64,000 nt of DNA from IMG/VR virus record IMGVR_UViG_3300045988_142085, positions 96,001-160,000 of that record; one strand, given 5' to 3'. Source of the DNA: a virus. Below the pieces are notes generated by a model. That model searched no databases and had not been told where the DNA came from. It saw nothing but the letters and a program-made list of their open reading frames with translations. The position numbers and the translations under genes are program-made. Below, one piece after another: positions 5,197 to 47,297 of this stretch. The number at the start of each line of letters is the position of its first letter. Positions within the stretch are counted from its first letter, which is position 1.

Positions 5197-6380
5197 TTTG
5201 TTTACTCCTTTATGATATAATAATATAATTAATTATGTTTGAATTTAAAATAATAAAATCGAGCCGCTATTACACATCTCTTTATTTAACTCTTAATATA
5301 TATTTAATTATAACTACCTATATAATAATAATATAATACTCTATACATTTATTATACTATGATTAATTTACTATTATACTAGTAATATTTATATAATTGT
5401 TTATGTTATATGTTATTATAATAATATATTAGCGTAACTGGTCGGCTTTAGCCGAACTGTTGCTGTCAATTATATTAAATAAGGTTTGAAGTATTGTAGC
5501 TAGTTTATTTTAAAAACAATACGAAAACAAATGAATTAGGTAAGTAGAGATATGTTTCAATATATTAATTAAAATATTAAAATTAACCAAAAACACTTGA
5601 AATAGAACGGTTGTAGAGTGTTTCTGCCCCTCTTTGTCTCAAAAAATAGAAAACACTCAAAAATATCAATAATAAGCAGGGTTTGAAGTATTATAGTAGA
5701 TTAAATGCTTAAAATATTAAAATGAGTAAAAAATATGCAATTAAGGTAGATGTGAGAGTGTTATATATATAGTCTAAAACTTAAAATAGCCTAATATTGC
5801 TTTAAAAACGGTGTGAGATAAGTGTTTCCTACCCTCCTCCCCCACCCAGCAAGCAATACTACACTTGCAGGATGTTGTCGTCGGGGCGCTCGTGAGGCGA
5901 CAGCGGGCTTTATTATTTTTTTTATTTATTATATATATAGTATATATAGCCTAAGTTATATAATAGTATAAGCTACGCAATAATTAAAGGCGGTGCCTCT
6001 AAGACTCTTGTTATTTAAAAGGCATTAATCTGTGTTATAGTATTATATAGACAGCCTTAATATTATATTATATATATGTTAAATAATAATATATCAGTCT
6101 ATATACGAGGCGCCAAGTCCTCTCTTAACACACGGGAATTGGCTCAATCAGGTGACGGTTATTTAAGAAATAATCTATACTTAATAATTATACAACAAAT
6201 GTATAATCCATTTAGGTTATCCTATTATATACTATAGATATAATAAATTAATACTAAGATTAAAAAAGGTTAGATAAAATCTACATTTTTAGCGACGATA
6301 TTTTTTGATAAAAAAATACCAAAAAATATCACGAATTTCTATTATACAAAAATAATGTATAAATAATTATTTTAATATTT

Positions 6381-6505
6381 TTAACCCGCTACACAACCAT
6401 AGATTGTAATATACCGGTGTAACAAGTTACACCGCTCCGCAATTTTTAATATAAAATAATATAACCAAGGCCCCCTGAAATAAATTCAGCAGGGTCTTTT
6501 CTTTA
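6381..6505 (+). ncRNA. candidate small-RNA unit 1: motif TTAACCCGC-N-TGTAATATA, perfect hairpin GGTGTAAC/GTTACACC, then intrinsic terminator
   Basis: conserved 9-mer plus -10-like TGTAATATA shared with units 2 and 3; downstream hairpin 6473-6494 followed by a T-run. Confidence 0.35.
6473..6505 (+). terminator. intrinsic terminator (CCCTGAA..TTCAGCAGGG plus TCTTTTCTTT)
   Basis: hairpin followed by T-rich tract on the plus strand. Confidence 0.45.
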
Positions 6506-6569
6506 TATTATTATATATATAATATAATAAACACTAACAATTAAAATAAAAAAATTATTTTTATTTTTT

Positions 6570-6682
6570 TTAACCCGCGGTGCTAACTTAACATGTAATA
6601 TACCGGTGAACGACAGTTCACCGCTTCCACTCACTTAAATATATAATAATCCTCAGAATAAAATCTGAGGATATTTTTTTTG
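6570..6682 (+). ncRNA. candidate small-RNA unit 2: same promoter-like motif, hairpin GGTGAAC/GTTCACC, terminator CCTCAGA-loop-TCTGAGG plus T8
   Basis: motif identity with unit 1; covarying hairpin; clean rho-independent terminator 6651-6682. Confidence 0.4.
6651..6682 (+). terminator. intrinsic terminator (7-bp GC-containing stem plus T8)
   Basis: perfect stem CCTCAGA/TCTGAGG, loop ATAAAA, then ATATTTTTTTT. Confidence 0.6.
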
Positions 6683-6689
6683 GAATTAA

Positions 6690-6786
6690 TTAACCCGCTT
6701 CGCTAATATACTACGTAATATACTAGTGGACGCAGTCCACTACTTCAGAACCTAAGCATCCTGACCTAACGGCCAGGATTTTTTCA
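6690..6786 (+). ncRNA. candidate small-RNA unit 3: same motif (CGTAATATA variant), hairpin AGTGGAC/GTCCACT, terminator ATCCTGacc..ggCCAGGAT plus T6
   Basis: motif identity; covarying hairpin; terminator 6758-6786. Confidence 0.35.
6758..6786 (+). terminator. intrinsic terminator
   Basis: stem ATCCTG.CC/GG.CAGGAT followed by TTTTTT. Confidence 0.5.
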
Positions 6787-7960
6787 TTATTAAGCATAAA
6801 CAAAGTTGGCCCATTTTAAAAATGCTCCAAACCCTTACTCACGTAATCTGCTGTGAAGATAAACAACTCGCAGAGGATCGTACACGAATAACCGTTTAAC
6901 GTATTCGGGCCTTAGCCCTCGATACTACTTTATATATAATATATATATAATTATTCTAATATTATTTAAAGATTTAAATAAGCGTCACTATTATTATCTA
7001 AATATAATAATTTATTTTAATATAATTAAAAAACCGTTCGCCTAAAATATTCGGTGTTCATTCTCTCTATCCATAACACCTAGTAAAAGAGGTAACAGTA
7101 TAACGCCGGAACCAGAGCAATAAAATTCCAGCTAACTGGTTAGAGCTTTCAAACTCTAACAACTTGGAATGATTAGTACTCGATAATAATTGTATCCTAA
7201 TAATTAATATTAATTATTATAAATTAATCTCGCACTAAGCAGAGCCTTCGTCACGAACTATAACACAGAAAATTGTAATTACGCTACGCTAATACAACCA
7301 GCCAACTTCGCTGCGCTATCTTTCTCTGGATCGGATCAAGACATTCTTTTATAATATATATAATTTAATAAAAGAATCAAAAGGGATTCGCCACCTAATA
7401 TAACCTTCGCCCCTAAATTAAATCCGGGGTCTCAGAACATATATTCCTTCGGAAATAGCCGGCGGCTCAAAATAATTGAATTATTTAAATCCAATTATAA
7501 TCACTGTTGCTCACCTAATTGAATAACTAGCAATAGTGTCCTATATAATATATATACTAATACTTAATTAATAATATACTTCATATATTATTATTAATAA
7601 CTAACATTACTTTTAAATAAAAAGTAATACAAAATACATATGGGGGGCGAAAAATATTCGAAATTTTATAACCTAAAGTTTCAGATTTTTCAGCCCGGAT
7701 TTTCGCTTTTATATATAGTACGACATAGTATACCGCTCACGGTCGTCCTCGCTAACGCTCGTTCCTTACCTACAGCTCAGTCGCAAGCTCCTTTCGCTTT
7801 CGGGATGCGTTTGCTATACGGCCCTCCGGGCCTCCATTATACTATACATATAGATAGCTTAAGGCAGGCGCTTTAATCGGTCGCTCCCGCTCCCTCTTCG
7901 CTTCTTTATCTAACCTATCTATATCCTTACGGATCGTAGCTAAAAGCTTAATACTAATAA

Positions 7961-8324
7961 CTTACTTCTCTTAATAAGAGAAGATAACAAGAGAACTTAA
8001 TATACTATATACATATATAATAAACGCTCGCTACCGCTCGCTTCTAATATAAATATAATATATATAATAATAAATACTTACTTTCTTAGGAAGAAAGATA
8101 ACAAAGAAGATATACGCTCGCTTCGCTCGCTCTTAATATAAATAATAAATACACACTTACTCTCTTAGAAAGAGAGTAACAGAGAACTCTAATAATAAAT
8201 AATAAACTGCTTACTTCTCTAAAGAGAAGATAACAAGAGACACATATACGGCTCGCTTATGCTCGCCTTGTTAAATAAATAAAATGAATATGCTTACTCT
8301 CTTAACAAGAGAGATAACAGAGAA
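7961..8324. repeat. array of 5 covarying hairpin repeats: CTTAC-[pyrimidine tract]-loop-[purine tract]-(G)ATAACA-[purine tract]
   Basis: copies at 7961-7994, 8077-8110, 8156-8186, 8210-8240, 8293-8324; flanks conserved, stems differ with compensatory changes (TTCTCTT/AAGAGAA, TTTCTT/AAGAAA, CTCTCTT/AAGAGAG ...), and the 3' purine tail covaries too. Confidence 0.7.
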
Positions 8325-8410
8325 TATTATAACGGCCGGCTCACGTGCGTTCGCACGGCCTACTATACAAAATAAGAGATCTACGCTCAGCTCGCATTCG
8401 CTCGCTTCGC
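8025..8410. repeat. CGCTCGCT-nn-CGCTCGC iteron-like motifs (4 copies) interleaved with the hairpin repeats
   Basis: copies at 8025-8043, 8115-8132, 8249-8267, 8384-8410; related CGCTC-rich tract at 7747-7765; GC-rich direct repeats in an AT-rich noncoding region. Confidence 0.55.
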
Positions 8411-8531
8411 TTATAGAGCGCTCGTGTGGCTTTATTAAGCAGTAACAACTTCACGCTATAAGTAATCATAGCCACCCAATTAAATATCATATACTGACGC
8501 ATATGATATTCAAAAAAAATAATTTTAGTAC

Positions 8532-8575
8532 ATACATATATATTGGATTAAAACCATACTCCAATATATATGTAT
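8532..8575. repeat. perfect 16-bp AT-rich inverted repeat (8532-8547 / 8560-8575) with a 12-nt spacer
   Basis: ATACATATATATTGGA ... TCCAATATATATGTAT, read directly. Confidence 0.7.
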
Positions 8576-8672
8576 ATATTAAATAAATTTTAAAAGAGCA
8601 AGCCGTCCTTTATATATACAGGACACCGCATCAAAAAAATATAGCTTTAGTCGGGAGCCATATTAATATTAT

Positions 8673-8745
8673 TTATTTAAATAAAAATAAGGTTTAGATA
8701 ACAGATGCGACCCACTCCCGTGTGCTTTTCCATTATCTAAACCTT
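8673..8745 (-). terminator. terminator of the rightward-encoded minus operon: 13-bp inverted repeat AAGGTTTAGATAA/TTATCTAAACCTT then a U-rich tract on the minus strand
   Basis: perfect 13-bp inverted repeat 8689-8701 / 8733-8745 just downstream of the stop of 8752..9234; the loop is long (31 nt), hence moderate confidence. Confidence 0.45.
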
Positions 8746-8751
8746 TAATAA

Positions 8752-9234
8752 CTAGCCTTCAGCTTGAGCTTCTTTAGCTTGGTTAGATACCATAACGATA
8801 TCATCGCTACCATCACCAGTAGAACCGAAAGATTTCTTAATAGAACGAATTTCATCGCTCTTAGTTAATTCGCCCCAGGATGCTTTTGCTTCGTCTACGA
8901 TGACACTAGTGCCACCAATTCCAAGCTCAGCAACCTTTTTAAGGCCACCAAAGAGACCTTTGGATACAACTTTAATACCGCCAATGCCAGCATCTTTAGT
9001 AATGCCAGCAACGATACCTAATTTCTTTCCGCCCCAGTTCACAATGCCACCAGTAGTAGCTTTGAATTTTGCCATTTTGTAGGCAGAAAGAATATCTTCT
9101 ACGACTGCATCGTCGCATTCTACTGTAAGAACTGTGCCATCTTGTGTGACACTTGCGTTGAATTCTTCAGTAGCTTTTTCATTGATATAATTAAGGATTT
9201 CTAAGTTTTCGTTTGTAATCTTAAATTGAGCCAT
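8752..9234 (-). CDS. Gly-rich hypothetical protein (160 aa)
   Basis: ORF track; strong ribosome-binding site; GC-richer codon usage than the flanks. Confidence 0.55.
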   Translation of the reverse strand: MAQFKITNENLEILNYINEKATEEFNASVTQDGTVLTVECDDAVVEDILSAYKMAKFKATTGGIVNWGGKKLGIVAGITKDAGIGGIKVVSKGLFGGLKKVAELGIGGTSVIVDEAKASWGELTKSDEIRSIKKSFGSTGDGSDDIVMVSNQAKEAQAEG

Positions 9235-9290
9235 GATGAGCCCTCCTCTTATTTAATAAAAAATAAGGGAGCCATGTGGCCCCCTTTAGA

Positions 9291-9980
9291 TTAAAATACA
9301 CCAGACACGTCTTCAACTTTCTTATTCGGGATTTCACGAACAAGATTAAATGTTTTGCTAGCCAAAGCATTAATTGCACGGCTAGAAGCACTTTCTGGAC
9401 GTTTAGCATACAAGTCACCATTGTGACGAGTAGCTACAGGGTAAGAGTAGTTACCCTTCATACCATTGGCGAATTTCACGCCATCTTCTGTAATACCATC
9501 TTTGAATACCAGCATTTGACCTTCTTCAAGTGCAACGCCTTCAGGCACTACTAGGTCAAAACCAGATAATTCAGATTGACGTGTGATTCGAAGATTAATG
9601 CCAGCTTCTTTGCTAGCTTCAAGAGCTTCTGCTAAACGAGTATAAGCAGTTGTATGCTCAGGAGTGTCATATTCGCTAGTAGCGAGTTCTGCACTTTCTT
9701 CAGGAGTATTGCCTTTAGCCAACAAGCCCATCAACTGATAAGTCTTGATAGCAACAGAATCAGGCAATACCATTTGTGCTGTCATATTGTCATATTCAGC
9801 ACGACGAGAAACAAAAAGATTTACTGCATCAGCAGTATGAAGAATTGCTACCGGCACAAACGCACCTTCGCGTTTCGCCAATTTAGCAACGTTTTCTTTG
9901 CCCCATGCTTGGAATGCACGAGCAAATCCGCCAAGTTTTGTACCAGCGATAACAGATGTAATGATAATGTTTTTAGCCAT
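9291..9980 (-). CDS. hypothetical protein (229 aa), compositionally GC-richer, possibly abundant virion or early protein
   Basis: ORF track; AAGGAGG ribosome-binding site; plus-strand ORFs overlapping it are spurious. Confidence 0.55.
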   Translation of the reverse strand: MAKNIIITSVIAGTKLGGFARAFQAWGKENVAKLAKREGAFVPVAILHTADAVNLFVSRRAEYDNMTAQMVLPDSVAIKTYQLMGLLAKGNTPEESAELATSEYDTPEHTTAYTRLAEALEASKEAGINLRITRQSELSGFDLVVPEGVALEEGQMLVFKDGITEDGVKFANGMKGNYSYPVATRHNGDLYAKRPESASSRAINALASKTFNLVREIPNKKVEDVSGVF

Positions 9981-37796: not shown

Positions 37797-38680
37797 TTAA
37801 TAATATATCCTCCTAAATCATCCCAATAATCACTATAGCTACTATGATGTTTTTTACGTTGACGCCATATTTCGTGAAGCTCAAATTTCCAATTCCATGG
37901 ATTTTGATCGATACGAGAAATTGTTTGATAGTTCTTATCGCCACCATAATAGTTTTGAAACGATACGGACATATTCGTCATCGGGCTTGAACTATCATTA
38001 ACTTCATATGGATTATATTTTCGTTTATATGCATCTTTGATCATAAAGAATACAGTATGGTAATCATTTTGATATGGATTATATGCAAATACTTCAGACC
38101 AATCATTCTTATTTTGTTCACCGATAAAGTTACCATCTTTCCATTGTGGAAGCTTAATAAATTTACGATAGTTATTCTTCGTAATAATAGTCTTATCAGT
38201 AGCCAATCCATTATTATTTATTTCTAAATACTTATTATTGTCTTTTGCAATAATAAAAGGCCATACAGAAATATCGACACCATCGATCGTAAATAATACG
38301 CCATTAGATTTATTAAATTTAACGGCTGGTTGATCCCCAGAATCAATCGTTAAATTACCGTTAAGATTTAAATCGTCATAACGAAGATAATCGCCGACAT
38401 TATTTTTATTTAAAAACTTATTGTCAGACTCTTGTTTCGTATAATATCCAGAAAGCTTATTATTAATTAAACTTAGTAGATCATCGATAAACGACGGAAC
38501 AGTATTCGTTAAATAATCTTTCATTTGATTAATACGATTAGTATACTGATTAATCAAACCATTGACACCAGTACCTTCAGCAATATCTCTAAAAGATTTT
38601 ATAGCGTCAATTATTTCATTTATTTTTCTTACTTGTAAGAACGTAGTCGTTCTACTTTTTAAATGTTCTATCATCGCCAT
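37787..38680 (-). CDS. tail fibre paralog (297 aa) with shared N-terminal YYTKQESDNKFL module
   Basis: N-terminal about 100 aa alignable with 38671.. and 39544..; divergent C-terminus. Confidence 0.5.
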   Translation of the reverse strand: MAMIEHLKSRTTTFLQVRKINEIIDAIKSFRDIAEGTGVNGLINQYTNRINQMKDYLTNTVPSFIDDLLSLINNKLSGYYTKQESDNKFLNKNNVGDYLRYDDLNLNGNLTIDSGDQPAVKFNKSNGVLFTIDGVDISVWPFIIAKDNNKYLEINNNGLATDKTIITKNNYRKFIKLPQWKDGNFIGEQNKNDWSEVFAYNPYQNDYHTVFFMIKDAYKRKYNPYEVNDSSSPMTNMSVSFQNYYGGDKNYQTISRIDQNPWNWKFELHEIWRQRKKHHSSYSDYWDDLGGYIIKCR

Positions 38681-39534
38681 AACACCTTCATAACATTGCC
38701 GTTATTACGGCTTTGATTATACCCAGTAAACACAGGTCCAGTTTTTTGAGTTAACTTAACATAAGATGCTGTTACTTCGACACCGACCGTAGAATACGGA
38801 GTTAAGAATTTAATCGGAACTTCGGCTCTACACATATATACATAAGCTGGTGCAATACGATGATCGTTTTGTAAATCGTGACCACCTTCATGGTATGTAT
38901 TATCGACAATAAGGACTAAGTCGTTCCATTTTGCCGGTAGCTGAACTGTATCGCCTACATTATTAATAGAGCTATTCGGAATTTCGTTCCAAGCAGCCGG
39001 AATATATTTACGTTCTTTAAGCTGAAAAATATCTTCGCCTAAAGAACGTTGAGTTCCGGTATTAATATTTCTAGAATATAATTCAGATCCATCAGGATTA
39101 ATTAATTTAAGCCAGTCGCCATCGATAATTAATTTAACGCCGTTAAGAGTCATCAATGTATTACCATCTTTATGACCCGTAACTTTATTGTCGCCAGTAA
39201 CTGTAAGCTTATGTTGGTAATCTAAATTTTGATTCTTTAAGATTGCATTATTTAAACTATCTTTCGTTAAATAACGATCATCTTGTTCTTGTTTATTAAA
39301 ATAAGATTTAATAGTTTCATTAAATCCATTTTTAATATTATCTAAAGATTCAGAAAAACTTTTTCTAGCGTTATTATAGATTAAATTAATCTTATTAAAT
39401 TCTTTAATAAAGTCGTTTGTCGAAATCGTCTTATTAGAAGTATCTTTAATAATATCTTTTAAACTATCTATAATTTTATTAATTTCTTGTGTCGCTTTAT
39501 ATGACACAGAAAATTTTTCCATTCGTTTTGCCAT
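38671..39534 (-). CDS. tail fibre paralog (287 aa)
   Basis: shared N-terminal module (SYFNKQEQDDRYLTKDSL). Confidence 0.5.
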   Translation of the reverse strand: MAKRMEKFSVSYKATQEINKIIDSLKDIIKDTSNKTISTNDFIKEFNKINLIYNNARKSFSESLDNIKNGFNETIKSYFNKQEQDDRYLTKDSLNNAILKNQNLDYQHKLTVTGDNKVTGHKDGNTLMTLNGVKLIIDGDWLKLINPDGSELYSRNINTGTQRSLGEDIFQLKERKYIPAAWNEIPNSSINNVGDTVQLPAKWNDLVLIVDNTYHEGGHDLQNDHRIAPAYVYMCRAEVPIKFLTPYSTVGVEVTASYVKLTQKTGPVFTGYNQSRNNGNVMKVLWR

Positions 39535-39543
39535 ATAAAACTC

Positions 39544-40341
39544 CTATCGATAATAAACTGTTTTTATAATACCGTTAAATCCTTCTTTAGTCCAATCAAG
39601 ATTAATGACGCCATTTTGTAAATTAATCGTACAATCTGCATCTCGATAATATGGTTGACCTAAACTTAGTTCAATCAATATATGATTAATGTATAAATGT
39701 CCATTATTATTACCGTCATGATATTGATATACGATTAACATTTGATTAGCGTCATCACCGTAAACTCGAGAATAATTCACGTTTCGAGTATTTTGGCTTC
39801 CTGGTAATTCTACCCATTCGCCAGGTGAAATATAACTAACACCGGTTACAATTTCTTGACCATTGACATAAGTAACGCCGTTTCTAATTTCGATCGGAAC
39901 ATTTCCGTCTGGAGAAATCATTTTAAAATAACCTGGACGAACTTCCCAGCTGCCACTGCCAAATTGAATGATTGGACCGCTAGTGTTATTTAAATTAATC
40001 GTACCGTTAACATTAAAATTATTGTTAACAGTTTCGTCACGATCTTTACGTAAATAATTATTAGCCGTGCTTGCTGAAGCAAATAAATCGTTACTATTAG
40101 CTTTCGTATAATAGTTAGATAATTTATTGGCGATCGTATTTCGAAGATCATTCAATCTACTTTGTAAACTTTGAATTGAATCTTCGATTATTTTTTTATT
40201 AGTATTAATAAAATCTAATAAAGTCTGTTTCGTAACAGTCGTACCAGAAATACGTTTAAGATCTTCGATCTCGGTATCGAATTCGTTGATCTTCGCATTA
40301 ATTTCGCGAAGACCAACAAGCTCTTTTAACTTTTGAATCAT
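39544..40341 (-). CDS. tail fibre paralog (265 aa)
   Basis: shared N-terminal module (NYYTKANSNDLFAS). Confidence 0.5.
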   Translation of the reverse strand: MIQKLKELVGLREINAKINEFDTEIEDLKRISGTTVTKQTLLDFINTNKKIIEDSIQSLQSRLNDLRNTIANKLSNYYTKANSNDLFASASTANNYLRKDRDETVNNNFNVNGTINLNNTSGPIIQFGSGSWEVRPGYFKMISPDGNVPIEIRNGVTYVNGQEIVTGVSYISPGEWVELPGSQNTRNVNYSRVYGDDANQMLIVYQYHDGNNNGHLYINHILIELSLGQPYYRDADCTINLQNGVINLDWTKEGFNGIIKTVYYR

Positions 40342-41078
40342 ACAGAATCACCGTAATTCAATACATCATTTTGTTGAGTATAATATAGAATATATCCACG
40401 TTCTGGGAATACACTATGAAGAATTACTTTATTTGCATTATATTCAGGAGTAATCGTACTAAGTTTCTTAGAAATACCGTCATAAATTACGACCTGAATA
40501 ACTTCAGCATTCGGAATATCCAAGGATAATTCATAATTATCTTCACCTTGTTTAATCCATTTATTAGTGCCGAATTCTAGTTTTTGAATAATAATGCTTT
40601 GATTAATTTTATCAACAACATTATTAGGAAGAACACTCTTACCATTTCTTACTAAGATCTCCCAATCTGTTCCATTGAATCGATATAGAGAACCAGCGGT
40701 GTCTCCACCGTTCACAGCCACAACGTTGCCGATAGTAGCATCAGGATATGTAGTGTATAATTCCGTTACAGAGCCTACACTATTTTTCCAATCGTTATTA
40801 TCGTTAGCTTTAATAATAGCTGCATATAATTCATCACGCAATAAAAAATCTTCGATAGGATGGCCCATGAATTTACGAGTATCTTCGCTAAGGTCACTTC
40901 TATCTGCAGTACCGGCACGATCAGAGAGTAAAGCATGATCGACAATTAAGCGTCGGAATTTTTCTTCTAACGTTTCACCATCGCTAAACATAACTTGATC
41001 GGCCGTAGTTTTTCCGTAAAACGGATCCTTGCCACCTGCGCCATTGTCGACAAGGATATTACCTTTAATATCTGCCAT
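40338..41078 (-). CDS. fibre or baseplate-associated protein (246 aa)
   Basis: ORF track; first gene after the polymerase terminator. Confidence 0.45.
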   Translation of the reverse strand: MADIKGNILVDNGAGGKDPFYGKTTADQVMFSDGETLEEKFRRLIVDHALLSDRAGTADRSDLSEDTRKFMGHPIEDFLLRDELYAAIIKANDNNDWKNSVGSVTELYTTYPDATIGNVVAVNGGDTAGSLYRFNGTDWEILVRNGKSVLPNNVVDKINQSIIIQKLEFGTNKWIKQGEDNYELSLDIPNAEVIQVVIYDGISKKLSTITPEYNANKVILHSVFPERGYILYYTQQNDVLNYGDSV

Positions 41079-41124: not shown

Positions 41125-41159
41125 TTATATTACAAAGAAAGCCTGTCTTATGACAGGCT
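41125..41159 (-). terminator. terminator hairpin AGCCTGTC-TTAT-GACAGGCT overlapping the dnaE stop
   Basis: 8-bp perfect stem with the stop codon in the loop; U-rich tract follows on the minus strand. Confidence 0.45.
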
Positions 41160-43100
41160 AACTTTCTTAACAATCATCTTAGAATCAGATTCTTTTTTGC
41201 CAGATAAATAGACTGTTTCGCCATACTTAATATAAGGCAAATTATTTAAATAAATAGAACTGAATACGATCAAATCAATTTCGACGCCGCCACCAACATC
41301 GCCTTTACAAAATGCCATAAGATTGCCGGACTTATCTTTTCGTTCATCGACTTTGGTGATTCTAACTTTAACGTTTTCTACTTCTGTTTTATCTTCCATA
41401 GAAAACCATTCTGGTGTATATGTTACCGGGCAATTTAATGTGTCCATTTCAAAGCTCATAATAAGTTCCTTTCCATAATTATCATTATTTAAACGTTCAT
41501 CTTTATCTTTTCTTAAATCATAAAACTGATTCATTAATTTTAAACGATTACTTTCGATATTAGAGAAAGCACCCGACTTAATTAAAGATGAACCAACACG
41601 TTTATTAAACGCTTTTTTACCAATTTTATTCATAGCATCTTCTAAAGAAGTGTAAGGTCGATGTTCAATTATGGCAGGTATGGAAGATAGACCCACGCCC
41701 TTAATGGACCCAAGACCAAATAAGATAGTGTTTCCATTAGGAGTAAAATCGAGATTTGATACATTAATGTCCGGAACTTCAACGTCGATCCCTTCCTTTC
41801 TAACCAATGGAATATAACGAACTAAATCTTCTAAAGATTGCATCGATAAATATGCAGCAAAGAATTCTACTGGATGATACAATTTAAGCCAAGTAGTAAG
41901 CATACTGGTAAATGAGTAGGCTACAGCATGAGATTTGTTAAATAAATAATTTGAATATCCTTGTATTGTTTCAAAATAATCTTCCATTTCTTTCTCAGTA
42001 TAACCATTAGCAAGAGCACCTTTAATTTCAGGACCATATTTACCTTTAGGGTCATACCAAGGAGCTTTATCGTCTTGTTCCCAACCTTCTGGACCTTCAC
42101 AATTTTTCTTGCCATAAATATGACAACGTTTAAGCATAGGCATTTTATCTGCTTTTTTCTTGGCCAGAATTTTTCTAGAAAGTGAATCTGCTTGGTTATC
42201 ATCAAAGCCAGAAACTTGTTTAGAGATCATCATAATCTGCTCTTGATACGGGATTACAGAATATGTATTACTTAAAATATTATCGATACCGCGTAAAGGA
42301 GCAGTTAATTCCTCTTTACCTTGTTTACGCTTAGCATATTGATGGTGCATATTTGCACTTAATGGGCCCGGTCTCAAAAGTGCCGTGGTTGCCGCAATAT
42401 CGTCGAAGCAAGTTGGCTTCATCTCTTTTAAATAATCTTTAAACATATCAGATTCTAATTGGAACACGCAATCTGATTTAGCTTGTGCCAATAATTTATA
42501 TAATTTTTTATCTTCGATATCGAAGCTATCATATAACCATTGAACATCTTTATTTAAATGTCTTAATGTTGTTTCTATTATGGATAATGTTTTAAGACCG
42601 AGGATGTCGAGTTTTGCTGTACCTAGTTCTTCACATTCAGTACCTGTAAATAACGTAATTGTTACGCCGTCAGCATCAGTACGTGTCGGAAAATAATCAT
42701 CGACACGACAAGGCATTGCTAGAATACCAGAAGCATGAACACCGAAGTTACGTTTAAGACCTTCGAATGCACGAGCCAATCTAAATAATTCTTTATTGTC
42801 GACTTCTAATTTCTGCCATTTAGTATATAAAGATTTTTCTGTTTCGTTGCCATCTTTTAATGCATCATAATGTTTAAACTTTGGTTGAGGAGGTACGACA
42901 TCTTTAAAGTCGTCAATAATTTTAGATAATGCATTCATTTTATCGAATGGAATTTTAAGTGCGCGACCAATATCTTTTAGGCCAGATTTAACGCCCATTT
43001 GAGAATATGTACCAATATGCGCTACGTTACTTTCGCCGTATAAATCTTTAATATGTTCAATAACTTTGTCTCGACCAAAGTAGCTAAAATCTGAATCTAT
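41148..43100 (-). CDS. dnaE: DNA polymerase III alpha (DnaE-like) exon 2; true 5' end at 43100, upstream of the ORF-track Met
   Basis: Aligns to the E. coli DnaE palm and fingers (FQLES, RPGP, NKSHA motifs). The in-frame stretch upstream of the ORF-track ATG reads IDSDFSYFGRDKVIEHIKDLYG, matching E. coli [23 protein letters not shown]. A stop codon lies just beyond 43103. Confidence 0.75.
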   Translation of the reverse strand: MDSDFSYFGRDKVIEHIKDLYGESNVAHIGTYSQMGVKSGLKDIGRALKIPFDKMNALSKIIDDFKDVVPPQPKFKHYDALKDGNETEKSLYTKWQKLEVDNKELFRLARAFEGLKRNFGVHASGILAMPCRVDDYFPTRTDADGVTITLFTGTECEELGTAKLDILGLKTLSIIETTLRHLNKDVQWLYDSFDIEDKKLYKLLAQAKSDCVFQLESDMFKDYLKEMKPTCFDDIAATTALLRPGPLSANMHHQYAKRKQGKEELTAPLRGIDNILSNTYSVIPYQEQIMMISKQVSGFDDNQADSLSRKILAKKKADKMPMLKRCHIYGKKNCEGPEGWEQDDKAPWYDPKGKYGPEIKGALANGYTEKEMEDYFETIQGYSNYLFNKSHAVAYSFTSMLTTWLKLYHPVEFFAAYLSMQSLEDLVRYIPLVRKEGIDVEVPDINVSNLDFTPNGNTILFGLGSIKGVGLSSIPAIIEHRPYTSLEDAMNKIGKKAFNKRVGSSLIKSGAFSNIESNRLKLMNQFYDLRKDKDERLNNDNYGKELIMSFEMDTLNCPVTYTPEWFSMEDKTEVENVKVRITKVDERKDKSGNLMAFCKGDVGGGVEIDLIVFSSIYLNNLPYIKYGETVYLSGKKESDSKMIVKKVSLS

Positions 43101-44294
43101 CTTTTACACCCTAGCTTTCGCTATATTTATTAAGGAATAGACCATATCTTCACCATATTTTTATTTTTAAAATAAAAACTTAGGTTGCTCCATTTCGGGC
43201 TTATCACCCTACGTCCCTTTGGACTGGCCGTTGAACGTTCCCCTATTCGAGGCTTCGCTGCTGATTTTCCAATCTTGTCTTTTTTTAGCATATCACACTT
43301 TTGCTTATTTCATCAATATGTTGTAGCAAGACAAGCTCTAAGGATGTTCCAGCAATTTAGAGCTCTTTAAACTTTAGATTTCTCTAAAGCACGACTATTG
43401 TTTAAATTGCATAAATCTAAATATCTTTGATATTTTCTATTCAAATATATCGTTGCATTTTTATATAATAGATCTAAAATTTTTTGTGTTTTTAAGTTTC
43501 CACCAAATTCTAAAGACATAACTTCTTGATAATCTTTTCTTTTATAATATTTATTAGCAGAAAAGCCAAGTTTTTCTTCTATATAATTATTAACAAAATC
43601 AAGAAATTTTTTAGTTGAAACTAATTTAAAAGCATAACTGTTACTTAATTCTGTGTTGGTGTGAGCAATAGAACCATTCCCATCAAAATATCCTCGTATA
43701 AAATCTGATACATAATTTTCTAATAAAGATATGTCTGGAGGAATTAAAATATTTGTTTTGTGTTCTACTAAGTTATATTTTAATAAATCATTAAACATAA
43801 TTTCAGAATAATATATTATTCTACTATAGCTATTTTTAGAATAAGAGTTTTTAGTTGCTTCATATGTTTTAATGGGATGATTACTCTCTAAACTTTTATT
43901 TAATTTTTCTAAATGAGTATAATCACAAGTAGACAATGTAAGACCTACTTTGTATGAATTATTATTTTTAGAAATATATCCATCAGCCATTAAAAAACCT
44001 AACCAATATGCTTTTTCTTCTGTGTCTATTTTATTGAAAAATTTTTCATTAAAATGATAGCGTGAATTAGCTTCTCTATGAGATCTAGGCGTTAAATTTT
44101 TCTTAATAAAGTATGAAACTTTTCCAGTACTAATACCTAATTCTTTTGCTATATATGGTGATCCATGTTTTTTATTATATAAATCTACAATTTTATTTTG
44201 AATTTCTTTTGATAATTTTGACATATATGTTACCTCATATTTATATTGATTTATAAATATTATAACATATATAATTATCTTATGCAATCATATA
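43101..44294 (-). mobile_element. group I intron (about 1194 nt) in dnaE carrying a LAGLIDADG homing endonuclease gene
   Basis: Exon 1 ends in U (GAU, Asp of LPD) and the intron ends in G, the classic group I boundaries. Joining the exons restores PD-IDSDF in frame. The 3' 266 nt is GC-richer and hairpin-rich (ribozyme-core-like). The nuclease has its own ribosome-binding site. Confidence 0.6.
43367..44224 (-). CDS. LAGLIDADG homing endonuclease (double-motif, about 286 aa) with N-terminal HTH
   Basis: motifs WLGFLMADGYIS and IRGYFDGNGSI; GAGGT ribosome-binding site before the Met at 44224; lies between the dnaE exons. Confidence 0.7.
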   Translation of the reverse strand: MSKLSKEIQNKIVDLYNKKHGSPYIAKELGISTGKVSYFIKKNLTPRSHREANSRYHFNEKFFNKIDTEEKAYWLGFLMADGYISKNNNSYKVGLTLSTCDYTHLEKLNKSLESNHPIKTYEATKNSYSKNSYSRIIYYSEIMFNDLLKYNLVEHKTNILIPPDISLLENYVSDFIRGYFDGNGSIAHTNTELSNSYAFKLVSTKKFLDFVNNYIEEKLGFSANKYYKRKDYQEVMSLEFGGNLKTQKILDLLYKNATIYLNRKYQRYLDLCNLNNSRALEKSKV

Positions 44295-45686
44295 ATCTGG
44301 CAAGCCTGTTCTGTCGATAGTCAAAAAACGACCGAACAGTAAATCATATTTAATAGGATCGATATTTTTAGTGATGCCAATACACCATAATACTAAACTA
44401 CCTGCAGCGCTCCCGCGTCCAGGACCAGTCATTACACCATTATTATCGGCCCAGTTAATATATTCACGAACGATAAGCATATAATCAGCGAAATCTTTAT
44501 AGTTAATAATGTTAAGTTCATACGCTAAACGTTGTTCATATCGTCTAATATCGTTAGCGATATAATCATATCTTTTTGCTAACTCATATAAACCTTTGTA
44601 AGCTAGTTCACGCAATTTACGTTTAGTATTTTTAACGCCAGGAAGTTTAGGCATTAATGGTACATCACTGCCTAATTTATATTCGCCGACTTTATTTGCG
44701 ATTTCTTGAGTATTATGCATTGCTTCTAAATATAAAGCATATTTTTCACGAGCAACACTTACTTCAGTTTCAGACGTATTAATTAAATATTTAAATCCGT
44801 CTTGCATTTCTTCTTCGTTTTTAAGCCAGAAGTTATGATCGTATTTCATACGGTTAGGATTATAAATATCGGTGCCAGTGCCGACACATACTAATACATC
44901 ATGATCTTTATTATCCTCTTTGAGGACATAATGTACATCGCTTGTCGCAACGAGTTTAATATTATGCTTCGTCGACATTGTTAAATAAAAATTATTTACT
45001 TTGACTTGGTCGTCGAATGCATTAGGTTGAACTTCGAGATAGAAGTCGTCACCGAAAATATCTTTATATTCTAAGATAAGTTCTTCGGCTTTTTCTAAAT
45101 CGTCTTTACGAACACGACTTGCTACCATATTCGCAACACATGCTGTCGTACAAATAACGCCTTCGCTATATTTACGAAGCATCGGCATATCGAACAAAAA
45201 GCGCCCGTTGTATGTACATACTTTAGCAGATTCACTTTGTAATTTAATTAAATTATTTAACCCTGTTTGATTTTTAGCTAATAAGATTAAATGATATTGT
45301 CTTGTGTCGTACATATGTTTTTCTGCACGAGCCTTAATATCTTTAATGCCTTTAACGCCTTTTTTGCCGGACGCTAAATCTTCAGCTTCTTTTTCTGTTA
45401 AGTCTCCGGCTTCTTTCGCCTTCAAAGCCGCATCGGCCCAGCGTTCTTCAACAGGTTTAGATAATGAAAGAGTGTCCCATGTTTGATATCCTTCATAACC
45501 TAAGATAGGCTTAACACCTTGTTTTTTACATTCTTGTAAAAATTCATAAATACCGCCCATATGATTATGGTCTGTGATGGCTAAACTTTCCATACCGAGT
45601 TCTTTAGCACGGCTAACTAACTTCGGTATATGACAATAGCCATCTAAAAAGCTATATGATGTATGTACATGTAAATGCGTAAACAT
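44295..45686 (-). CDS. dnaE: DNA polymerase III alpha (DnaE-like) exon 1: PHP domain and N-terminal palm up to GPGRGSAAGSLV...GLPD
   Basis: MFTHLHVHTSYSFLDG PHP motif; GPGRGSAAGSLVLWCIGIT..DP..LLFGRFL matches the DnaE signature; the ORF stops 4 codons into the intron (YMIA*). Confidence 0.75.
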
Positions 45687-45748
45687 TTTATTATTCCTCC
45701 TTATAAAAAATATAATTGTTTATCAACAAATATATAATATTATGTATA

Positions 45749-46987
45749 CTATTCTAACCAATAAATTTTATTAAATTTCCAAATTAATTTACATTTTTGT
45801 GCGTTTACTTTTTTACAGTGTTTAGTTTTTGATTGAAAATTCAAAACTAATTGTTCTGGGTATAAAGCTGTAACATAGCCTGTGTGAATCTCTCCATTTT
45901 TATACGTATAAGAAACTAAATCTCTATGCTTAATCCCTAGTACATTATTAGTTTTTGCTTTTGATTTTCTCCTCATTGGTTTAATAGTCCATTCTTTTAT
46001 ATTGCAAGAATCTGGAATGTCATTTGTAATACATATAGCATCATTACTATGAGATTTTTCTATATTCCATTCAATTCTTTTATTCGCAGTTGCGCCGCCA
46101 TTAGTCAAATGCAATAATCCTAATTCAGATATTTTATTTCGTAAATAATTTTTACCTTGCATAACATGCATTGCATAATCGAATCGTTTAGGCTTAGAAT
46201 TAATTATTTTAAAATATTTATCTTCAAAATCTTTTTCTTTACCTTTTGTTTTGTCATGACATTTGAAACAAAGAGTAATTAAATTTCCAATAGTATCTGC
46301 TCCATGATATTTTCTTGCTCTTATGTGATGTACTTCTAATTTGCAATTAGATTTTCCACATTCTTGACATTTATAGTTATCACGAATAATAGTTGCTTTT
46401 CTAAGATTTTCATCTAAACGATTAGATTTTTGATATTGCCATTTATAAGGTTTATAATCGTCTGTCATTGCACGAATATCAATACAAACATCTTCAAGAT
46501 AATATTCTTTAATATTTATCCATTTATTTAGTTGATATAATACTCTTAAAATAGCATCTTTCTTTTGTTTAATAGTTGGTGTTAATCTACCGACTTTTTT
46601 GGAAGATGAGCGATTATTAAACCTCATTGGTCTATGTCTTTTATGGTAACGATGATATTGTCTATATCTACGTCTAGTATCCATCAAATGTTTCACATCT
46701 TGACGTTGTTCAATAATCCCTTTAAATACTACTTTATTTTTAGTAGAACATTTCTGAACAATAGCTATACCAACATGTATAGAACCATCGTCTATACCAC
46801 AAATTATATAACTTTTATCATTTTCATTAAATTCAACTTTTTTATTTAGTTGAATTACCATTGGGTATTTAGATTTTAATTTTGCTCTGCCTTTTCTAAT
46901 TAGATACCAGCCTTTATTCACTTTTGTTGGCGCTAATGGTTTATTATCTTTATCAATTACAAAGCAATATTCAATTTTATTTTCCAT
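45749..46987 (-). CDS. iscB: IscB RNA-guided nuclease (PLMP, RuvC-I, Arg-rich bridge helix, RuvC-II, HNH, RuvC-III, TID), 412 aa from Met [12 protein letters not shown]
   Basis: Motifs seen: KPLAP with [12 protein letters not shown] (PLMP domain), [16 protein letters not shown] (RuvC-I) and [16 protein letters not shown] (bridge helix). Also YLEDV (RuvC-II), CQECG..HHI..N..LCFKCH (HNH) and HSNDAI (RuvC-III). GGAAGG ribosome-binding site 9 nt upstream of this Met. Confidence 0.75.
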
Positions 46988-47280
46988 TTCTGGAAACCTT
47001 CCTTTCGGAGTATTTTTCGTCTTGCCAATGTCGTGGATGGTGCATGTGTTTCTCTGTTGTCTATACAGGACGTTAGTATAGTTTCTTGATTGGCACTCAC
47101 AGAGCTTCAGACTGACGAGCACATCTAAAGGTGTGTCTTTAACCTTTTCCATAACGTAGTTCATATCTGCAGCATATCTTTCGATAGCAGCAATCACTAA
47201 GGCTAGAAACCTATTATCAAGCAAATACAAATAAGAAATATAATATATATTCGCCCACTTTTTCGTATTTTTATTTATAA
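46988..47280 (-). ncRNA. putative omega-RNA scaffold (plus guide) of the IscB element; coincides with the ORF-track N-terminal extension
   Basis: about 230 nt of markedly GC-richer, stem-forming sequence immediately upstream of and abutting the iscB start, the canonical omega-RNA position; exact ends unknown. Confidence 0.4.
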
Positions 47281-47297
47281 AATAAATTACTTAATAA

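Follow-up and report, generated by a model that had tools for sequence, protein, structure and literature searches.

In the genome of a large uncultivated phage, the gene for a DnaE-type DNA polymerase III (Pol III) alpha subunit appears as two open reading frames (ORFs) with a third ORF between them, and this locus raises the question of whether the intervening DNA is an intron, an intein or a boundary between separately translated halves. The stretch analysed, hereafter the window, comprises 64,000 nucleotides (nt) of IMG/VR record IMGVR_UViG_3300045988_142085 (positions 96,001 to 160,000; GC content 32.9%). All coordinates refer to the window, and dnaE, its insert and the ORF within the insert lie on the minus strand. 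We conclude with high confidence that positions 43101-44294 are a group I intron carrying a LAGLIDADG gene, an identification proposed earlier in a sequence-only reading of the window. The parts of the interrupted gene are as follows.

44295..45686, minus strand: dnaE exon 1, 464 codons, with the PHP domain and the first part of the Pol III alpha catalytic domain (PF02811, PF07733)
43101..44294, minus strand: group I intron, 1194 nt, first base U (44294) and last base G (43101, omega-G), identified by RF00028 and covariation
41148..43100, minus strand: dnaE exon 2, 650 codons and a stop, starting IDSDF (PF07733, finger, HHH_6)

The upstream ORF (45686..44280) encodes a protein ending ...GPGRGSAAGSLV...FLTIDRTGLPD-YMIA-stop. 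The final codon of exon 1 is GAT (...TGLPD), with its last base, T, at 44295, and the frame then enters the insert as YMIA before it meets TAA. On the other side, the exon 2 frame reads IDSDFSYFGRDKVIEHIKDLYG from 43100, upstream of the first Met of the called ORF (42998..41148). This frame is closed by TAA at 43106-43104, followed by AAG with the last intron base, G, at 43101, and exon 2 is without a start codon in its first 34 codons. GC content is 34-35% in the exons, 22.8% in the endonuclease ORF and 37.6% in the 266 nt that follow it.

The two pieces belong to one polymerase. Positions 2-103 of the Pfam profile PF07733 (DNA_pol3_alpha) match the end of exon 1 and positions 104-260 match the start of exon 2; the profile stops at 103 and resumes at 104, and the exon pieces are therefore contiguous. 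The joined gene has the domain order PHP, Pol III alpha catalytic, finger and HhH (PF02811, PF07733, PF17657, PF14579) and contains the PDxDxD motif. In addition, 160 residues around the junction align gap-free at the junction to solved Pol III alpha structures (E 3e-42 for Taq 3e0d/2hpi, 2e-37 for E. coli 2hnh), with LPD/IDSDF (the slash marks the junction here and below) falling on MPDIDTDF of Taq and MPDFDVDF of E. coli. The alignment of the reconstituted protein to DnaE, which had been suggested as a check, thus supports the earlier placing of the split at the catalytic motif. Counted along the alignment, the last Asp of exon 1 corresponds to D401 of E. coli (D463 of Taq) and the first Asp of exon 2 to D403 (D465), both members of the catalytic aspartate triad of Pol III alpha. 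The insertion falls after the codon corresponding to E. coli D401 and before that for F402, so by this alignment the two aspartates are placed on different exons. Megablast of the whole gene against GenBank phages gave no match, and the gene region has no close relative among those deposited phage genomes.

Relatives were found in IMG/VR, where a scan with exon 1 yielded 35 related loci on contigs of up to about 236 kb, which form two groups at 95-98% and 76-80% amino-acid identity. Zero bases separate exon 1 from exon 2 at this junction in 28 of the 35 relatives. The empty junction reads ..CCTGAC/GTAGAC.. (PD/VD or PD/ID); examples are the intron-less target sequence ...ACGGGACTTCCTGAC/GTAGACGCAGATTTT... 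and the site of locus L024, ..ACGGGACTTCCTGAC/GTAGACGCAGAT.. Five relatives carry an insert of 1195-1197 nt and two carry an ORF-less insert of 304 or 313 nt at the same site (L012 7393-7696 and L019 3514-3826). Single ORFs of 1114-1115 amino acids (aa) make up 24 of the 28 intron-less loci, the other four being interrupted farther downstream in the gene. The spliced window product (1114 aa) is 72-95% identical end to end to these 24 uninterrupted ORFs, and 91-95% identical within its own clade. Since the two ORFs of the window are read as one gene in intron-less relatives, they are not separate subunits, an outcome that had been named as one that would speak against an intron.

The boundaries are equally well defined. 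The edge bases differ (T/T...G/A), so the boundaries cannot slide, and the intron is exactly 43101-44294, 1194 nt. The coordinates first given for it are correct, as judged by the reading frames, the edge bases and the relatives with a zero-base junction, and the edge nucleotides described then (U as the last of exon 1, G as the last of the intron) correspond to T at 44295 and G at 43101. The intron-less homologues that had been called for thus exist and fix the insertion site exactly. Recognising the intron restores a single predicted DnaE of 1114 aa, whose ligated exon junction is expected to read ...GGCTTGCCAGAT/ATAGATTCAGATTTT (CCAGAU/AUAGAU).

The ORF inside the insert bears on the nature of the element, and its position is as follows.

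44233..44236, minus strand: ribosome-binding site GAGG, 8 nt before the ATG, kept in 6 of 6 alleles that contain the homing endonuclease gene (HEG)
43367..44224, minus strand: endonuclease ORF, 285 aa, with a helix-turn-helix-like N-terminus and a monomeric double LAGLIDADG part, in the loop of helix P1

LAGLIDADG_3 domains occur in inteins too, some relatives of this protein bear the Joint Genome Institute (JGI) name 'intein-encoded DNA endonuclease-like protein', and DnaE is a classic intein host. An intein was therefore considered, together with a group II intron. The insert, however, is out of frame with the exons: it has a stop after four codons and another 3 nt before exon 2, and its ORF has its own start and ribosome-binding site. 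With the frame broken after four codons, an intein is excluded, in line with the original preference for an intron. As for a group II intron, no group II RNA family matched at E up to 10 in 42900-44500, reverse transcriptase is not encoded and the ORF is LAGLIDADG only; the group II signature that had been listed as a counter-indication is not seen. We give practically no credence to either an intein or a group II intron.

A group I ribozyme is recognised directly. The Infernal search that had been recommended matched RF00028 at 43414..43119 (minus strand) over the full model (1-253) with 59.4 bits against a gathering threshold of 50 (E = 4e-14 in a 1.6-kb search, 1.6e-12 over the whole window), and the two ORF-less variants pass the same threshold with 53.1 and 53.4 bits. 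Covariation was evaluated in an alignment of 10 ORF-deleted introns (the window, seven IMG/VR alleles, one ENA contig and Alicyclobacillus phage KKP_3916) on a hand-drawn structure with P1, P2, P3, P4, P5 and its extensions, P6, P7, P7.1, P7.2, P8 and P9. The elements downstream of the ORF are located as follows.

43101..43366, minus strand: catalytic core after the ORF, from covariation and folding
43363..43359 with 43191..43187, minus strand: P3
43354..43349 with 43264..43259, minus strand: P4
43344..43268, minus strand: P5 and extensions
43258..43235, minus strand: P6
43229..43225 with 43144..43140, minus strand: P7
43224..43213, minus strand: P7.1
43209..43197, minus strand: P7.2
43185..43152, minus strand: P8
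43123..43112, minus strand: P9, with a GAAA loop

Standard pairs fill 96.6% of the 744 pair cells of the 10 introns (96.6-97.2% across the 9- and 10-sequence versions of the alignment). Double-sided changes occur in 31 of 75 pairs (29-31 pairs across the two versions), as compared to 2-8 in controls with the 3' partners shifted by 1-3 columns, and none of 500 shuffles attained the observed pairing and covariation values. Compensatory pairs are most frequent in the P5 extension (7 of 8) and P2 (6 of 8), with one each in P3 and P7, which form the pseudoknot; P4 is invariant. Both P7.1 and P7.2 carry compensatory changes, and P7.2 is 91% paired in the 9-sequence alignment. The core also folds better than shuffled sequences (z = -2.05), its centroid containing P2, P3, P4, P5, P6, P7.1, P7.2, P8 and P9. 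A non-native P3/P7 alternative returned by RNAalifold was replaced by the pseudoknot, which scores better.

Hairpins P7.1 and P7.2 are a hallmark of subgroup IA. Their presence between P7 and the 3' strand of P3 places the intron in subgroup IA of the group I introns, as judged from the aligned structure. The U.G wobble at the splice site is invariant in all 10 aligned introns, as are the G-C and A-U pairs of P1, and the terminal G is present in 13 of 13 introns examined. The dnaE intron RNA is predicted to splice. RNAalifold also proposed a pairing of exon 1 bases -8 to -5 (UGCC, 44302..44299) with GGGU after P9 (43111..43108), corresponding to alignment columns 1-4 with 339-342, in which only one-sided changes occur.

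The 5' part of the ribozyme is wrapped around the endonuclease gene, with its elements at these positions.

44292..44297, minus strand: P1 5' strand GAU/UAU (three exon and three intron bases), with the splice-site U at 44295 in a G.U wobble
44280..44288, minus strand: P1 extension 5' strand AUUGCAUAA, including the UAA that ends the exon 1 frame
43406..43414, minus strand: P1 extension 3' strand UUAUGCAAU, inside the endonuclease ORF
43393..43398, minus strand: internal guide sequence AUAGUC (P1 3' strand), inside the ORF, codons N-S-R
43371..43390, minus strand: P2 hairpin with a GAAA loop, ending one base before the ORF stop codon

Cofolding of HEG-containing alleles paired 44288..44280 with 43414..43406 in every case, and this nine-base extension brackets the ORF, so that the ORF and its ribosome-binding site occupy the extended P1 loop. 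The UAA that closes the exon 1 frame is the final triplet of the 5' strand of the extension. The ORF ends ..N-N-S-R-A-L-E-K-S-K-V-stop, and its last 11 codons contain the internal guide sequence (P1 3' strand) and the whole of P2, an overlap of about 45 nt between ribozyme and coding sequence. The sequence-only reading had assigned the ribozyme to the 266 nt after the ORF; the GC-richer core does lie there, but the ribozyme is not confined to that segment. L012 and L019, which lack the ORF, have the guide element AAUAGUCG at a distance of 11-22 nt from their 5' splice site, with P2 immediately after it. Translating the ORF to its end may unwind the guide and P2, and endonuclease translation and splicing would then be mutually exclusive on any one transcript. 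A sigma-70 promoter scan gave 16 sites compared with 19.1 expected by chance, and TGTTATAAT upstream of the ORF was rejected as a promoter on account of its -35 element.

The conserved RNA structure also bears on the possibility of a truly split gene, in which a free-standing endonuclease gene would lie between separately translated DnaE halves and the structured RNA would be a relic. In favour of this, the exon 1 frame terminates four codons after it enters the insert, and fractured genes whose halves flank an endonuclease are reported from metagenomes (PMC2677866). Exon 2, however, has neither a start codon nor a ribosome-binding site at the junction, and a start at its first Met, 34 codons in, would delete the second catalytic Asp. 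Split-intein sequences are absent, the RNA structure is conserved with compensatory changes and the ORF-less versions of 304-313 nt make sense only as introns. We consider a split gene very improbable, and the group I intron remains the preferred reading.

The protein encoded in the intron was assigned by profile and structure comparisons. Pfam places PF14528 (LAGLIDADG_3) on it in two stretches with 44.2 bits against a cut-off of 22.5, the motifs being LGFLMADGY and IRGYFDGNG, and this together with the GAGG upstream of the ATG agrees with its original description as a free-standing, double-motif LAGLIDADG ORF with its own ribosome-binding site. Its best PHROGs match is phrog_4645, an 'endonuclease' family (E 8e-62), and 4161 database proteins match at E <= 1e-10. 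The identical protein occurs on 14 public contigs under the JGI name 'DNA-binding transcriptional regulator WhiA', and its 90% cluster also contains proteins that bear the name 'mobile intron protein'. An AlphaFold model (mean predicted local distance difference test score, pLDDT, 92) and a motif sample were built from 53 database homologues. A single-sequence search of the PDB with the endonuclease found nothing; profile and fold searches gave matches, the best Foldseek hits in the PDB being I-AniI, bI3 maturase, I-OnuI-type meganucleases and I-Tsp061I (E 2e-10 to 1e-8). These fold matches and the model identify the intron protein as a monomeric double LAGLIDADG protein, whose modelled fold is the pseudo-dimeric alpha-beta-beta-alpha-beta-beta-alpha type. 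The N-terminal part (residues 1-55) consists of three helices that show weak similarity to helix-turn-helix domains. The acidic residue of motif 1, D81, is present in 53 of 53 homologues. The reading frame of this putative endonuclease is uninterrupted (285 aa) in 6 of 6 alleles, and a ratio of nonsynonymous to synonymous divergence (dN/dS) of 0.05-0.23 shows that the protein is under purifying selection. No second copy of the intron or its protein was found in the window.

The allele set contains several signs of homing. Both host clades include intron-bearing alleles, and both endonuclease sub-types are likewise present in the two clades. Introns can be more alike than the genes that contain them: between the window and L023, identity is 78% and 76% in the exons, 92% in the HEG region and 97.6% in the core, and between L009 and L016 it is 89% and 86% in the exons and 98.9% in the HEG region. 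Synonymous divergence (dS) agrees, with 0.41 in the HEG and 1.08 in exon 1 for the former pair, and 0.03 and 0.62 for the latter. The compared flanks of L023 (with intron) and L024 (without) are identical save for six synonymous differences confined to the final 13 nt of exon 1. Each of these L023 changes matches a state of other intron-bearing alleles (ACGGGACTTCCTGAC to ACAGGTTTGCCGGAT), and the first 60 nt of exon 2 show no difference. L023 and L022 are nearly identical over 600 nt. This 13-nt exon 1 pattern looks like a short, one-sided co-conversion tract. Further, all 13 intron-bearing alleles have T at base -1, as against C in 27 of the 28 empty sites (Fisher p = 8e-10).

The ORF-less variants L012 and L019 have the most diverged cores (85-94% identical to others), and fit vertical persistence after loss of the endonuclease or an origin before its gain. 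Taken from the alleles, presence and absence of the intron, ORF-less variants, co-conversion and introns more alike than their host genes show the footprints of horizontal movement. The sole intron-less allele with CCAGAT, L018 (junction 7392/7393), is otherwise close to the intron-bearing L015, and could represent a precise intron loss or an unconverted ancestor.

Other interruptions of dnaE occur in the relatives. In L010, L018 and L038 (about 8116-9517), the gene is interrupted after residue about 705 (..AATTAL/LRPGP) by about 1.4 kb with a 350-aa ORF ending ..AVEYDGPQHF. The interruption in L037 (about 8263-9498) follows residue 753 (..YQEQ/), is about 1.24 kb long and contains a LAGLIDADG ORF broken into 167 and 127 aa, and L049 carries a second LAGLIDADG ORF within exon 2 (6130-7017). 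Neither the residue-705 nor the residue-753 interruption is present in the window, and the further dnaE interruptions of the relatives gave no Rfam group I match at E < 1e-3.

Several observations weigh against a mobile group I intron. The default Rfam gathering search of the whole window missed the intron, and the match emerged with relaxed filters; the default miss presumably arose at the filter stage. P10 is weak, the candidate read by eye being 3-4 base pairs of CAAU/UAAU with exon 2 A/GUA/UG, with at best three of four pairs formed and a mismatch in most alleles. Identity is lower in the HEG region (82-92%) than in the core (96-98%), which indicates that spread has not been uniformly recent; recombination within the intron is possible. 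Lastly, motif 2 of the protein reads FDGNGS, with N183 (codon 43676..43678) where an acidic residue is expected, so that canonical two-strand cleavage is not assured.

The Asn leaves membership of the LAGLIDADG fold unaffected, and it raises the possibility that a splicing-competent group I intron encodes a strand-specific nickase, which would initiate homing by a nick, and/or a splicing maturase. In the profile alignment N183 stands opposite E148 of I-AniI and the Asp of I-Tsp061I. It is kept in 6 of 6 alleles of the window lineage under purifying selection, despite 8-18% nucleotide divergence of the HEG region, and the dN/dS values argue that the Asn is included in what is selected. The residue also recurs in the wider family (15 Asn and 38 Asp in the 53 sampled members), whereas three Bacillales phage homologues have Asp. 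The top structural matches include the bifunctional I-AniI and bI3 maturase, and the co-conversion tract is short and one-sided. The footprints of horizontal spread, on the other hand, point to some active mobility function, with which a nickase is compatible. We regard a nickase and/or maturase role as possible, though clearly the minority view. The more specific proposal, that the protein is a natural LAGLIDADG nickase supporting nick-initiated homing and that translation and splicing form a switch between polymerase and endonuclease expression, is somewhat more doubtful still.

For the preferred reading, a group I intron with a LAGLIDADG endonuclease, the following sequence of events may be proposed. 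Once transcribed, the intron RNA would fold into the P1-P9 ribozyme, in which the last three exon 1 bases, GAU, pair with the guide AUAGUC and the splice-site U is set in a G.U wobble. Free guanosine would attack the 5' splice site, and the released exon 1 would then attack after the terminal G to yield one dnaE mRNA of 1114 codons. During mixed infection, dnaE alleles without the intron would be cut or nicked by the LAGLIDADG protein at the point where the intron inserts, and repair from the intron-containing copy would spread the intron.

Homologous introns exist in cultured phages. A tblastn search of GenBank phages with the endonuclease found homologues at 36-41% identity in three phages, in each of which the endonuclease lies between dnaE halves at the same codon, GAT is the last codon of exon 1 and G the final base of the insert; the junctions are ..PPD/IDVDF, ..LAD/IDIDF and ..VAD/VDIDM. 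An endonuclease of 50% identity occupies the same dnaE site in further large phage contigs. In Bacillus thuringiensis phage 0305phi8-36, the codon (..SPPD/IDVDF, compared with ..GLPD/IDSDF in the window), the exon 1 GAT and the terminal G are shared with the window, as are a homologous LAGLIDADG protein (36% identity over 95% of the query) and a UAUAGUC guide element at the ORF end. Its record names ORF240 'DNA polymerase III alpha subunit; coding region interrupted by a mobile intron' and ORF036 'mobile intron protein'. The RNA core of 0305phi8-36 is shorter and by eye without P7.1 and P7.2, its protein has Asp rather than Asn in motif 2, and the host phages are unrelated at the DNA level. 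Rfam gave no match on this dnaE intron, either in a 28-kb search (E 0.001) or in a 1.2-kb search (E up to 1), and the likeness therefore rests on the site, boundaries, guide element and protein.

The other two phages, KKP_3916 of Alicyclobacillus and LC76P1 of Lysinibacillus, carry an endonuclease at the same site (38% and 41% identical), with Asp in motif 2 in contrast to the window. The core of KKP_3916 aligns helix by helix with that of the window and scores 70.6 bits on RF00028. In both GenBank records, the exons and the endonuclease are annotated as separate hypothetical proteins and the intron is unannotated. About 460 nt downstream of its dnaE intron, KKP_3916 (L003 5708-5936) has a second group I match (41.7 bits, gathering 50), and this weaker match suggests another intron in its dnaE.

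Group I introns and their homing in phage polymerase and nucleotide-metabolism genes are textbook knowledge. The T4 introns of td, nrdB and nrdD (sunY) are of subgroup IA2 with P7.1 and P7.2, and interrupt genes of nucleotide or DNA metabolism. They share a looped-out free-standing endonuclease ORF, homing with exon co-conversion and an early stop in the exon 1 frame. Their endonucleases are of the GIY-YIG or HNH type, and the ORFs are looped from P6 or P9, as opposed to the LAGLIDADG protein and P1 loop of the window. The DNA polymerase genes of Bacillus phages SPO1 and SP82 (I-HmuI and I-HmuII) also contain a group I intron, whose homing is reported to be begun by a nicking enzyme (PMC421625). 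These differ in having a family A polymerase as the host gene and an endonuclease of the HNH type; I-HmuI of SPO1 serves as a model for a nickase interpretation of N183. Among structural relatives, I-AniI (1p8k) and bI3 maturase (2ab5) occupy Foldseek ranks 2-5 (E 4e-10 to 8e-10) and, like the window protein, are monomeric double LAGLIDADG proteins encoded by group I introns. Identity to them is 15-19%, and the phage protein differs by the extra helix-turn-helix-like N-terminus and by Asn in place of Glu. The element is thus of a known selfish kind, with a homologous intron at the same codon already annotated in 0305phi8-36; in the limited literature searched, no paper detailing this dnaE intron family was found.

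The neighbourhood of dnaE contains further features. Directly upstream lies an IscB protein of 411 aa (46984..45749, minus strand), with 274 bits on the NCBIfam model guided_IscB (equivalog 'RNA-guided endonuclease IscB', cut-off 175) and the Pfam domains RRXRR and HNH; a sub-threshold HEARO/omega-RNA match (31 bits, E 3e-4) precedes the ORF at 47218..47010 (minus strand). The 1.6-kb IscB block (45687-47297, minus strand) sits between a recJ-like gene and dnaE. As all 35 relatives are without the block, the insertion is unique to the window among them; in the relatives, the recJ-like gene leads directly to the ribosome-binding site of dnaE. Without the block, the sequence there is ..AAGGA^GGAATAG.., and AAGGA is found at both edges of the block in the window. 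On the other side of dnaE, 38671-41078 (minus strand) holds three consecutive ORFs of 287, 265 and 246 aa, the first two of which resemble each other in a coiled N-terminal part and in their C-terminal pattern, in the manner of tail-fibre or receptor-binding paralogues. A full-length OTKONC RNA (RF03053) is found at 6962..6792 (minus strand; 170 bits, gathering 141), a name unmentioned in the limited literature searched. No tRNA genes were found in the window.

The finding leaves the current understanding of phage introns unchanged. Its immediate consequence is for annotation, because gene callers turn this essential polymerase into two 'proteins' and a 'WhiA-like regulator', which recognition of the intron corrects. 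The insertion between catalytic aspartates is another illustration that such elements target essential genes where the sequence is least free to mutate. Should its activity be confirmed, the Asn variant would be a possible source of natural nicking meganucleases, and if the overlap of guide and coding sequence acts as proposed, any one transcript would carry a built-in switch between polymerase and endonuclease expression. The 36 alleles together give a compact picture, from a single natural phage population, of how a homing endonuclease passes through its life cycle, with empty sites, introns with and without the endonuclease, a co-conversion tract and two further gene interruptions.

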